The notes under the pieces are model-generated. The model ran no database searches. It was not told where the DNA came from and worked only from the letters and a program-made list of their open reading frames with translations. DNA of 64,000 bases from Novakomyces olei (taxonomy: Eukaryota), in the NCBI GenBank assembly GCA_016906335.1, contig JADEYG010000015.1, positions 1,178,001 through 1,242,000 of the forward strand, given 5' to 3'. Shown here piece after piece: positions 57,427 through 60,460 of the stretch (position 1 is its first letter; every line of letters starts with the position of its first letter). The position numbers were made by a program, and so were the translations under genes.

Positions 57427-57689
57427 TAGACGTTTGTACTAGCCCATTGATACGACCACTAGTCTGGCATTGAACGCAATTGACTTTTTGCACACCAGGA
57501 TTAGCCATCCTGCTGGGACATTCAACGCGCAAGATAGGCCCTCGTGAACAGAAGTAAATCACTAAAGACCGAGGTCATCGTAACGTAGGTTACGTTGTTC
57601 GAGTTTCTAATCCTTTGGGCATCCAGATCATTTAACATTCTTGCCAGTCGGGTATTCGCCTGGTAATGAATATTCATGTAGAGCTCTCC

Positions 57690-58130
57690 TCATCTGTACA
57701 CTCGTCCAATACCATTGCACACCCAACACTGATCATCAACTAGACCGAACATTGAAGATTTGTAACCCTTTCCGTAGCATTTTGGACACAATTGCCCCCC
57801 TAACCGTGGATCTCCTGCCGGGACCGTTAGAGGCCGTGGCGGGGTGGCACTGTAGCCATAGTTTGGTTGAGGAGGCGAATAATGCTGATACTGCTGGTAC
57901 TGCTGGCTTTGAACGTAACCCGAGCCCGGATAACCGTGATTAGTGGCAGACGAAGGCCGTTCTTGCGGTCGGGGTGGAGGTCTTGGCGGAGGAGGAGCAT
58001 TGTACCGCTGTGGATTGTCTGAATAAGGCCGATTATTATACCTGAAACCTTGAGTTTGTAACATGGATTCTTCGTATGACGGCGGCATTTCGTCGCCGCC
58101 GCCCTTGCGACCACTGCTGCCTTTGGACAT
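57690..58130 (-). CDS. HUA1: Hua1-like proline-rich protein with C-terminal Zn finger
   Basis: PPSY motif, Pro-rich centre, GDPRLGGQLCPKCYGKG...CWVCNGIGR. Confidence 0.85.
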   Translation of the reverse strand: MSKGSSGRKGGGDEMPPSYEESMLQTQGFRYNNRPYSDNPQRYNAPPPPRPPPRPQERPSSATNHGYPGSGYVQSQQYQQYQHYSPPQPNYGYSATPPRPLTVPAGDPRLGGQLCPKCYGKGYKSSMFGLVDDQCWVCNGIGRVYR

Positions 58131-58254
58131 GTCGTTTGGACGATTTACCACACGTTCATGTAGTGCTATTCTTATACGTGTAACCCCACTGGATCAGCAG
58201 ACAATTACGCTAGTAATTGTATAGAAACTCTAGTACGATGTGAATATTTTTTGT

Positions 58255-58420
58255 AGAACCTATAAAACAACAATGGATGACACAGGATTATACAATTTTA
58301 TTGTAAAATGCTTGTTGAAAAGATTAGTTAGCCAGTTAGTGTTAGGATAAACTAATCCTAACCCTAACTAACCCTGGCTTTTTGCCGCTATGACTAGACT
58401 AACTTTATCCCGACATTTTA
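58255..58420 (-). repeat. Dispersed telobox-containing element, copy 2 (HUA1/SPE2 divergent region)
   Basis: Reverse complement reads GGATAAAGTTAGTCTAGTCATAGC...AAGCCAGGGTTAGTTAGGGTTAGGATTAGTT, matching 44640-44830. Confidence 0.8.
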
Positions 58421-58790
58421 CATGGGTAAAAAAATAAATTTAGTATACGACTGAAACATTGTGTTGTTTTCATTCCAAATTACAGTAACGACTCGTTCGC
58501 TATACTGAAATGTTCTTCAATGTAATAAAGCGTTGTAATAAAACGTTATATAATAAAACTTTTGTATGAATCAATCTATGACGGAGAGCTAATTCAATAA
58601 AAAATTACCGTGCGGACGATTCAAACTTTTCCCTGCATTGAAAGCCAGAAACGAGACAATTATCGTTTGAGTAAAGTGCAACTAGGCGCACTGAGCTCAA
58701 TATAACGTATTATACCAAAAGTTTCGAGCGCTTGGTATATGCTACTGGCAAACGACCGGCCTGTAAATTTTTTTCTCTGAGTAAAAGATT

Positions 58791-59030
58791 TTGAAAAGCC
58801 GTCGACTGGGATCCGTGCCTGGTCAAGCCCCTGTTCTCATATTGTATCCGGCAGCATCGTATGGACTGCGTACCCGTGTGCGCAAAAGTTTATCACCGGT
58901 AAGTCTTGCTGCTGACTTGATTCAAGATCTTTTTTTTTCAGGAGTTTATAGTATTATGCGAATATTATTTGCTGACGTTCCCCAGACCGCGATAGCATTC
59001 CTTCCACACTTTTACCGAAAGCCTCCATAA
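58791..59030 (+). promoter_or_regulatory. Spliced 5' leader of SPE2 with overlapping uORFs, one ending YRKPP-stop
   Basis: AUG at 58861; intron 58899-58985 (GTAAGT...GCTGAC...CAG); intronic AUG at 58956 opens MRILFADVPQTAIAFLPHFYRKPP*, ending 107 nt before the main ATG. Confidence 0.65.
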
Positions 59031-59137
59031 AAGACTGTAGAGGGGATTTCTTTATAATATTTCCTTCTGCTCGTTGATTAGCCAATTACCGTTCAATCAC
59101 CAGTTTTCCTCGCACAGGGAGCTATATTCTCCTGCCG

Positions 59138-60460
59138 ATGGTGGGGTTCACTAAAGAAGTCAATTTTTCTACAAAATGCACACCCAGTAATAGTGCTGCA
59201 GCCTCCGCTACTAATTCTACTGCGATAGAAAATACGACTGATGTCCCTCACCGTGAAATTAACCATATTACGGCTGATACATTGCCCGAATCCTGTTTCG
59301 AAGGACCTGAAAAGTTGCTAGAAATATGGTTTGCGCCTGATGACACGTGCCTGCCCGTGGATGCGGTCCCTGAAGGATTGCGTGCAATCGCGTATCATGA
59401 GTGGGAAGCGATGCTCGACGTTGTCCAGTGCAAGATTCTTTCTTCCGTTTCTTCTGGACACATGGACGCTTACTTGTTATCAGAGAGCAGCATGTTTGTG
59501 TTTGCTCATAAAATTATCCTAAAGACTTGCGGAACAACTACGCTTTTACATGGGGTCAGCCGTATACTGGAATTGGCTCACAAAGTGCGGCTGCTGCACT
59601 CTGTGACTGACCAGCCGTGGCGAGTATTTTATTCACGCAAGAGCTTCATGTTCCCTGATAAGCAACACAGACCTCATTCTAGCTGGGAAGAGGAGGTCGC
59701 TTTCCTCGACGCTCAATTTGTCAATGGTACTGCTTACATGGTGGGTGCTATGAACTCTGAGCACTGGCATTTGTACTTGACGCAAGGGGGGACTAGTACC
59801 GATTATAATGATGACGATAGGGTGCGCAATAGCGATTTTGAGGACGAAACTATCGAGATTCTTATGAGCGATCTGGATCCCTTTAAAGCTCAAATGTTTT
59901 TCGCCTCCGAGCAGGCGGATGCTGACCCGTTTAATGCTCATAATGCACTGGAAGACGCTAGTGAGGGTCACTTAATGGGCGCTTTGACGAGTAAGAAAAC
60001 GGGGATGGACGCTATCTACCCCAGTTCTGAGTACAGAACCGCGCGACTGGATTCTTACCTGTTTGAGCCCTGTGGGTACTCCGCTAATGGAGTCATTACT
60101 CAGGCGGCTAATGGCTGTGCCGGTCAGCGCCGCTCTAATTACTTTACCGTGCATGTTACACCCGAAGCCCATTGCTCATACGCTTCTTTTGAAAGCAATG
60201 TTCCCAGCAAATCTCACGAAGAGGCAAAGGCAATTATTTGTAAAGTGCTCGATATTTTTGCGCCCGGTCGATTTTGTGCGACTATTTTTGAGGCCAAGCC
60301 CGGTGCTAACGAGACAATGCCCTCTCGACGTAAGCCCAAGGATTTGACTAGTTTGGCACTGGGAAGTCTTCCGCATTATCGACGCACTGAAAAGATCGTG
60401 TACGAGTTTGATGGCTACGATTTGGTTTTTACATCCTTTCGACGATCACAGGGCCAGTAG
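59138..60460 (+). CDS. SPE2: S-adenosylmethionine decarboxylase proenzyme
   Basis: FEGPEKLLEIWF, YLLSESSMFV (pyruvoyl cleavage site), LKTCGTT, FEPCGYSANG, TVHVTPE. Confidence 0.98.
   Translation: MVGFTKEVNFSTKCTPSNSAAASATNSTAIENTTDVPHREINHITADTLPESCFEGPEKLLEIWFAPDDTCLPVDAVPEGLRAIAYHEWEAMLDVVQCKILSSVSSGHMDAYLLSESSMFVFAHKIILKTCGTTTLLHGVSRILELAHKVRLLHSVTDQPWRVFYSRKSFMFPDKQHRPHSSWEEEVAFLDAQFVNGTAYMVGAMNSEHWHLYLTQGGTSTDYNDDDRVRNSDFEDETIEILMSDLDPFKAQMFFASEQADADPFNAHNALEDASEGHLMGALTSKKTGMDAIYPSSEYRTARLDSYLFEPCGYSANGVITQAANGCAGQRRSNYFTVHVTPEAHCSYASFESNVPSKSHEEAKAIICKVLDIFAPGRFCATIFEAKPGANETMPSRRKPKDLTSLALGSLPHYRRTEKIVYEFDGYDLVFTSFRRSQGQ

Follow-up and report, generated by a model that had tools for sequence, protein, structure and literature searches.

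Introduction

S-adenosylmethionine decarboxylase (AdoMetDC) carries out a rate-limiting step in polyamine synthesis, and its control by upstream open reading frames (uORFs), a textbook case for mammals and plants, is poorly worked out for fungi. For two other mRNAs of the polyamine pathway, those of ODC and AZIN1, Ivanov 2008 and Ivanov 2018 reportedly describe the uCC, that is, an AUG-less coding frame with an AUU start in mammals.

The closest described systems on the AdoMetDC gene itself are fungal. AdoMetDC leaders of Pezizomycotina hold uORFs with a penultimate proline, and the authors who described them infer independent origins for AdoMetDC uORFs; the accessible portions of their main text mention no intron and no additional frame without an AUG (Ivanov, Atkins and Michael 2010, PMC2811004). 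The SAM decarboxylase (SDC) leader of N. crassa contains two uORFs, is alternatively spliced and represses translation, with one spliced form losing the uORF starts and keeping one uORF's 3' part (Li and Breaker 2017, PMC5640933). The nearest experimental model for the locus described here, being the same gene in a member of Taphrinomycotina, is the spe2 leader of S. pombe, which has two small uORFs and confers a spermidine response on a reporter. Start mutants of both AUG uORFs kept this response, showing no dominant uORF role, and Sun et al. ascribe the response to direct spermidine-RNA binding (Sun et al. 2020, PMC6961545). Here we compare with these systems the leader of an SPE2 gene located in a 64-kb stretch of DNA (the window, meaning the full stretch, to which all coordinates refer).

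Results

The SPE2 gene and its leader

The identification of the gene as AdoMetDC (SPE2), made in a preliminary description of this DNA, was confirmed by a Pfam match of its product to PF01536 (E 1.6e-120). The N-terminus of the product, MVG, lines up with that of its closest relative, protein P0002 (64% identity), and the best named matches are those of Saitoella (50%) and Neolecta (48%). For the neighbouring gene GCD14, the best named matches are Schizosaccharomyces (49-52%), Savitreella, Saitoella and Protomyces. We infer from protein similarity that the host is probably a Taphrinomycotina-like, early-diverging ascomycete of which no close relative has been sequenced. The elements of the leader and the gene are the following:

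58785-59030, + strand: stop-to-stop open frame of 81 codons, holding the Lys-Pro-Pro (KPP) end
58861-58898, + strand: uORF1 exon 1, which opens with AUG1 (C at -3, G at +4) and covers 12 codons plus positions one and two of an Arg codon
58899-58985, + strand: predicted leader intron of 87 nt, phase 2 relative to uORF1, with a GTAAGT donor and a CAG acceptor
58956-58958, + strand: intronic AUG2 with A at -3, sharing its frame with the KPP stop, in unspliced RNA only
58986-58995, + strand: uORF1 exon 2, which supplies position three of the Arg codon and continues with CCG (Pro), CGA (Arg) and UAG, then CA
58992-59030, + strand: candidate AUG-less short uORF (the KPP frame), opening with AUA (G at both -3 and +4), 12 codons long, with a Lys-Pro-Pro end and UAA at 59028-30
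59031-59137, + strand: spacer of 107 nt without ATG, from the KPP stop to the main AUG
59138-60460, + strand: SPE2 coding sequence (CDS) for the S-adenosylmethionine decarboxylase (AdoMetDC) proenzyme, 440 codons, without intron, PF01536

AUG1, the intron, AUG2 and the KPP-stop frame all lie where the preliminary description had placed them. AUG1 is the ATG at 58861-63, in the start context TCGTATGG, which is similar to that of the related locus L026. The intron is bounded by GT at 58899-900 and AG at 58984-85 and has a branch site, TGCTGAC (58970-76), located 9 nt ahead of the AG; in the neighbouring M16 peptidase gene, a confirmed intron shows a matching layout (GTAAAC ... GCTAAC-N6-AG). When the intron is spliced out, uORF1 comprises 15 codons and ends in Arg-Pro-Arg-stop, with the intron splitting the Arg codon as CG/A and the CCG CGA TAG end at 58987-95. 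When the intron is retained, uORF1 comprises 13 codons and stops at a TAA (58900-02) within the donor G/GTAAGT, giving exactly the truncated peptide described previously. An alternative intron of 43 nt (58899-58941, ending in TCAG), which would keep AUG2, was considered and rejected: its sole branch-like site is 11 nt past the donor, and it is also disfavoured by the conserved acceptor context, AG-N-CCN-CGA-TAG, at 58985.

We searched for the architecture of uORF1 with a pattern consisting of an ATG, 11-17 codons, a phase-2 donor, an intron of 35-450 nt, AG, one base and Pro-Arg-stop. This split-uORF pattern has a single match on both strands of the window, at the SPE2 leader, while composition-preserving shuffles gave a mean of 0.14 matches, with at least one match in 24 of 200 shuffles. 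Pro-Pro-stop accounts for 10 of the 5751 stops in the six frames of the 64-kb window, and the KPP frame is the only one to end in Arg- or Lys-Pro-Pro-stop. The split-uORF pattern and the Arg/Lys-Pro-Pro-stop of this leader are not due to chance.

A split AUG uORF in fungal relatives

The comparison set consisted of 80 fungal SPE2 loci on metagenome contigs, scanned with an SPE2 alignment, whose products are 38-48% identical to the window protein. These relatives are interrelated, and since loci share ancestry, the counts given below overstate the number of independent events. An AUG uORF of 16-18 codons with a Lys-Pro-Arg-stop end is found in 61 of the 80 loci, typically reading M-S-x-K-D-L-L-R-F-L-S-K-P-A-K, then P-R-stop. 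In 53 loci, a phase-2 intron splits the last Lys codon (AA/G) directly before Pro-Arg-stop, that is, at the same position and in the same phase as the leader intron of the window, and in the remaining eight the uORF is contiguous. Six of these eight are short, transcript-like contigs from which the CDS intron seen in their genomic relatives is missing as well, and the alignment of one of them (L035, spliced) with a genomic counterpart (L041) has its gap exactly over the predicted leader intron; because of the missing CDS intron and this match of gap and intron, we take all six to be transcript-like and spliced. The other two, L023 (uORF1 at 2901-2957) and L026 (886-936), are long genomic contigs with a uORF1 without intron and no Pro-Pro-stop frame, and only 28 nt separate the uORF1 stop from the main ATG in L023. 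Among the 19 loci without a uORF1 call, eight have less than 300 nt of upstream sequence, eight show nothing, L027 begins inside the element, and L040 and L059 have exon 1 only.

The agreement extends to the bases around both ends of the frame. The -3 base of the uORF1 AUG is a pyrimidine (T or C) in all 35 distinct relatives and C in the window; the last codon is AGA or CGA in 34 of the 35 and CGA in the window; and all 35 have UAA or UAG as the stop, followed by CA in 31, compared with UAG-CA in the window. The exon-2 bases are nearly identical between L020 and the window. Altogether, the window uORF1 shares with the 61 uORF1-bearing loci a weak AUG, the length, the Lys/Arg-Pro-Arg-stop end, the AGA/CGA codon, the UAA/UAG-CA stop and the intron site. 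It is also like the uORF of Pezizomycotina in being short, upstream of AdoMetDC and provided with a penultimate proline (PMC2811004). Unlike the latter, it belongs to a host that groups as Taphrinomycotina-like, and its peptide is without the internal motif D-L-L-R-F-L-S-K-P-A, a motif that is also weak in L030, L033, L034, L066, L023 and L026.

Judged by this comparison, the split AUG uORF with its leader intron is an old, conserved element, and it would be very old since it is common to a Taphrinomycotina-like fungus and many Pezizomycotina-like loci. The conserved form is the spliced one, with the Arg-Pro-Arg-stop end, a conservation that the preliminary description had missed. The AUG uORF and leader splicing as such are already in print (Ivanov 2010; Li and Breaker 2017).

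Two minor observations concern the region just past uORF1. In several loci (L003, L012, L026 and L070) the bases following the uORF1 stop recur as CAC GAC TCC CGA TAA or similar, which places another in-frame stop four or five codons further along. In addition, C follows the uORF1 stop in nearly all cases and makes for weak termination.

An AUG-less frame ending in Arg-Pro-Pro-stop

Downstream of uORF1, 62 of the 80 loci contain an AUG-less frame with an Arg-Pro-Pro-stop end, which is of an Ile type in 56 loci, a TTG type in five and an ATG type in one. The 56 Ile-type frames are 15-17 codons long and encode 40 distinct peptides with the consensus I-P-x-x-K-x-F-F-I-P-L-x-A-R-P-P-stop; the residue before Pro-Pro is R or, in a few cases, L or W. 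The selection pattern demanded Ile and Pro-Pro-stop and left codon choice, the -3 base and the absence of ATG free. Among the 47 distinct DNA versions of the Ile-type frame, the first codon is ATT in 40, ATA in seven and ATC in none, as opposed to 174 ATC, 115 ATT and 13 ATA among the Ile codons in the SPE2 CDS of the same loci. The base at -3 of the Ile start is A in 47 of 47 versions and the stop is TAA in 44 of 47. In addition, an in-frame ATG upstream of the Pro-Pro-stop frame is absent from all 43 spliced leaders and all six transcript-like contigs, and a stop lies three codons before the Ile start in L010/L015, L040 and L059. Entropy by codon position is 0.89, 0.63 and 1.25, that is, third positions vary most, as for a translated frame. 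We read the Arg-Pro-Pro frame of the relatives as a probably translated uORF with a near-cognate AUU or AUA start. No description of this AUG-less frame was found in the literature searched, although supplements of known papers may hold one.

The frame is not universal, and a lineage can dispense with it: no Pro-Pro-stop frame is present in 12 loci that have uORF1 and sufficient sequence upstream. As side observations, the second uORF of L038 starts with ATG at the equivalent position, and a Pezizales-like group (L002, L004, L005, L006 and L017) has TTG and a different peptide body with the same R-P-P-TAA end.

The KPP frame of the window

As in the relatives, the KPP frame lies between uORF1 and the main AUG and has no in-frame AUG in the spliced leader. 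The statement of the preliminary description that the frame of a spliced mRNA must be entered without an AUG was therefore borne out, in the window and in the relatives alike. The two codons that had been proposed as entry points, TTG 58791 and CTG 58806, are indeed in the KPP frame, but neither is favoured as the likely start; the start is most likely the AUA at 58992-94, which is the last near-cognate codon of the frame and overlaps the uORF1 UAG by two bases. The 81-codon open frame in which the KPP frame is embedded ends in ...IAFLPHFYRKPP at the TAA 59028-30 and crosses the intron and, in another frame, uORF1; its length may be a matter of chance, and in several relatives only a short stretch of open frame precedes the start.

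The KPP frame differs from the frames of the relatives in having 12 rather than 15-17 codons, Lys rather than Arg before Pro-Pro, G rather than A at -3, and in lacking the conserved CGUCCC downstream of the stop. The KPP peptide is missed by a profile built from the Ile-type Arg-Pro-Pro peptides; it scores -3.0 bits and ranks 2323 of 2413 scored (3273 C-termini in the window). However, the same profile also misses members of the TTG type and the ATG type (2.9, 3.1 and -0.7 bits), and since divergent true members score as low, we do not count the miss against homology. The body of the KPP peptide bears no recognisable likeness to the I-P-x-x-K-x-F-F-I-P-L of the Ile-type peptides. The KPP frame is likely a compacted counterpart of the Arg-Pro-Pro frame of the relatives; its homology is probable, not proven, because of the 12 uORF1-bearing loci that have no such frame.

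RNA structure of the leaders

The leader of the window shows no excess stability, folding at -89.6 kcal/mol vs. -87.9 kcal/mol in shuffles (z -0.30), and a search of positions 58300-59400 against Rfam with E up to 10 returned nothing but a chance match to a snoRNA, located in the CDS (14.4 bits, gathering threshold 52). The relatives (L008, L022, L035, L041 and others) have a strongly conserved hairpin between both uORFs, 17-25 nt before the AUU, with the core CCGAUAC ... GGUAUCGG, extended by CUGCUAGA / UCU..CAG and by CCUCG / CGAGG. This hairpin is probably the published SDC RNA motif. A covariance model (CM) built from a tightened alignment of 29 relatives did not find it at positions 57500-60000 of the window, where the best match scores 5.9 bits (E 0.3) with the hairpin part deleted.

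A second, small hairpin (AACGUC ... GACGUU type), beginning at the second base of the UAA of the Arg-Pro-Pro frame, was observed in 30 of 40 distinct loci (e.g., L009, L018, L025, L027, L028, L035 and L079); the 5' arm of this hairpin is the conserved CGUCCC. In the window, CCUC and GAGG pair around the KPP UAA instead (-5.4 kcal/mol).

Discussion

A probable compact two-uORF module on SPE2

We favor the hypothesis that the leader of the window is a compact version of an old fungal two-uORF leader module that regulates AdoMetDC by polyamines, here on SPE2, and we assign to it a probability of about 60%. The anatomy, its conservation, also of the coding type, and the non-AUG start in the relatives are established by the comparison. 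Translation of both frames in the host, initiation at the AUA, a pause, a response to polyamines and a role of eIF5A are parts of this hypothesis that we infer by analogy. The uORF1 AUG context would be weak by design and the functional mRNA would be the spliced form, ending uORF1 in Arg-Pro-Arg-stop. Scanning ribosomes would then translate uORF1 or leak past it, and a fraction of them would initiate at the near-cognate codon. Ribosomes that arrive at Pro-Arg-stop or Pro-Pro-stop would need eIF5A and pause when polyamines are high, and a paused ribosome would block and queue the scanning ribosomes behind it; such queueing may also make initiation at the weak codon more frequent, as happens on AZIN1 mRNA. 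The pausing is modelled on the analogous plant and AZIN1 systems. Fewer ribosomes would thus reach the SPE2 AUG, 107 nt downstream, and AdoMetDC synthesis would fall when polyamines are plentiful. Unspliced RNA, by comparison, would yield a uORF1 without the Pro-Arg end. The element does belong, as had been proposed for it, to the class of polyamine-gene uORFs with a proline at or next to the stop, and a two-uORF leader of the polyamine type has good support.

If the Arg-Pro-Pro frame is translated, then fungal AdoMetDC would have a non-AUG proline-stop sensor like that of ODC and AZIN1, and the frame would become a concrete hypothesis for the leader repression that Li and Breaker mapped without a mechanism. 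A more far-reaching version of the hypothesis, which we regard as distinctly unlikely, holds that the elements have been pushed together in the window (the AUAG overlap), that splicing acts as gain control and that the Arg-Pro-Pro uORF is an ascomycete-wide second sensor. If the AUAG overlap has this meaning, ribosomes that finish uORF1 would pass straight on to the near-cognate start, while intron retention would swap that weak start for the strong intronic AUG and remove the Pro-Arg end of uORF1; that is, splicing would set the gain on a polyamine-sensing stall peptide.

Alternative explanations

The preliminary description had favoured an intron toggle, under which regulated retention of the 87-nt intron lets the KPP frame begin at the strong AUG2 instead of a weak non-AUG codon and truncates uORF1 at the same time, so that splicing sets the repression of SPE2. 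AUG2 is indeed in frame with A at -3, and the intron offers 29 codons without a stop in the KPP frame. Moreover, the KPP frame begins right at the acceptor, which makes the situation of the window different from that of the relatives, where 57-166 nt intervene between uORF1 and the Pro-Pro-stop frame. The SDC leader of N. crassa is also alternatively spliced into forms with and without uORFs, but these forms arise, according to the accessible part of that work, from two 5' sites and not from retention (PMC5640933). None of the 43 related loci with a split uORF and a Pro-Pro-stop frame has an in-frame intronic ATG, and in only four of the 43 is the frame open into the intron. The leader introns of the relatives range from 50 to 265 nt, and 14 of 44 distinct introns are a multiple of three, which is the chance rate. 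An open frame of 29 codons with one ATG in 87 nt is not rare either (a few per cent, by a post hoc estimate). The stop within the donor, found in 28 of the 44 distinct introns, is a by-product of the phase-2 GT(A/G)AG donor. Given the absence of intronic ATGs from the 43 relatives and the chance distribution of intron lengths, the toggle is left only as a lineage-specific possibility, and we consider it unlikely for the window. Alternatively, only the split AUG uORF might be functional in the window, with the KPP-stop frame being a coincidence or a decaying remnant. This reading draws on the 12 uORF1-bearing loci without a Pro-Pro-stop frame, which include L023 and L026, the closest to the window by uORF1 context and SPE2 identity, and on the failure of the profile to recognise the KPP peptide. 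On the other hand, the KPP frame has the sole Arg/Lys-Pro-Pro-stop among 5751 stops, at the expected place and with the UAA that 44 of 47 relatives use, and its spliced leader is as free of AUG as theirs; hence coincidence or decay appears improbable to us.

Two further explanations were considered. The leader might sense spermidine directly as a structured RNA, as the reporter and binding data for S. pombe spe2 would have it (PMC6961545), in which case the small frames would have only a subordinate role. The GCD14 comparison puts S. pombe with the nearest named relatives, and the start-mutant result for spe2 counts against a uORF-based explanation because the spermidine response was kept (PMC6961545). 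However, the leader of the window folds no better than shuffles and has no Rfam match, and the conservation seen in the relatives is of the coding type; we consider direct sensing very unlikely here. Finally, uORF1 and the KPP frame might be joined by recoding, either through the -1 frameshift at CGA-UAG that the preliminary description had allowed for or, in relatives, through readthrough of the stop. The overlap of AUA with UAG, the conserved rare CGA or AGA codon before the stop and the conserved C after it could be taken in this sense, as could the coincidence of the two frames in 19 of 36 relatives, which is above one third. Yet there is no slippery heptamer at the site, the offset between the uORFs is 1 in eight and 2 in nine of the 36 relatives, and in several loci the Pro-Pro frame is interrupted by stops a few codons ahead of the Ile. 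Since the frame offset varies, a conserved frameshift or readthrough is excluded, and recoding is in our view extremely unlikely.

Comparison with described leaders

The SDC leader of N. crassa resembles that of the window in having two uORFs near splice sites, and it represses translation, as the leader of the window would; it differs in using two 5' splice sites, not retention as far as the accessible text goes, and in its SDC hairpin of about 11 bp, which is probably absent from the window (PMC5640933). For the S. pombe spe2 leader, the accessible portions of the paper describe neither an intron nor a non-AUG frame (PMC6961545).

Among plants, the tiny/small pair of AdoMetDC uORFs is alike in several respects: the uORFs are consecutive, stop and start overlap, the start of the first is weak, and the second is a sequence-dependent repressor with a proline near the stop (PMC2811004). 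Both plant uORFs start with AUG, however, and overlap by one base, the small uORF, of 48-55 codons, ends in Pro-Ser, and the first uORF is, in the part of the source that covers it, not split by an intron (PMC2811004).

The likeness to the uCC of ODC and AZIN1 is one of type, and consists of a conserved AUG-less frame with a near-cognate start and adjacent C-terminal prolines on a gene of the polyamine pathway. The differences are that those genes are not AdoMetDC, that the uCC spans 22-100 codons vs. 12 in the window and 15-17 in the relatives, and that there is no sequence similarity; further, the KPP and Arg-Pro-Pro frames end exactly in Pro-Pro-stop and have an AUG-started uORF ahead of them. 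By analogy, the KPP frame would function like a uCC, yet it is no member of that group, its gene being AdoMetDC and not an ODC homologue.

Other features of the leader and promoter region

A GTATGG at 58859-58864 overlaps AUG1 and, from its motif only, could be an alternative 5' splice site that removes AUG1, which would resemble the uORF-less form reported for N. crassa. Upstream, near 58700, the GC content increases from about 0.32 to 0.43, and a TATAA is present at about 58702; because of these two features, transcription may start around 58739-58780. A further ATG opens a frame of 13 codons to a TGA at 58739-58780, which would add an extra uORF if transcription starts upstream of that ATG. 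Finally, about three imperfect, telomere-like repeats of the CCCTAA type are found at 58340-58376 in the promoter region of SPE2, between this gene and an upstream gene on the minus strand (57690-58193).
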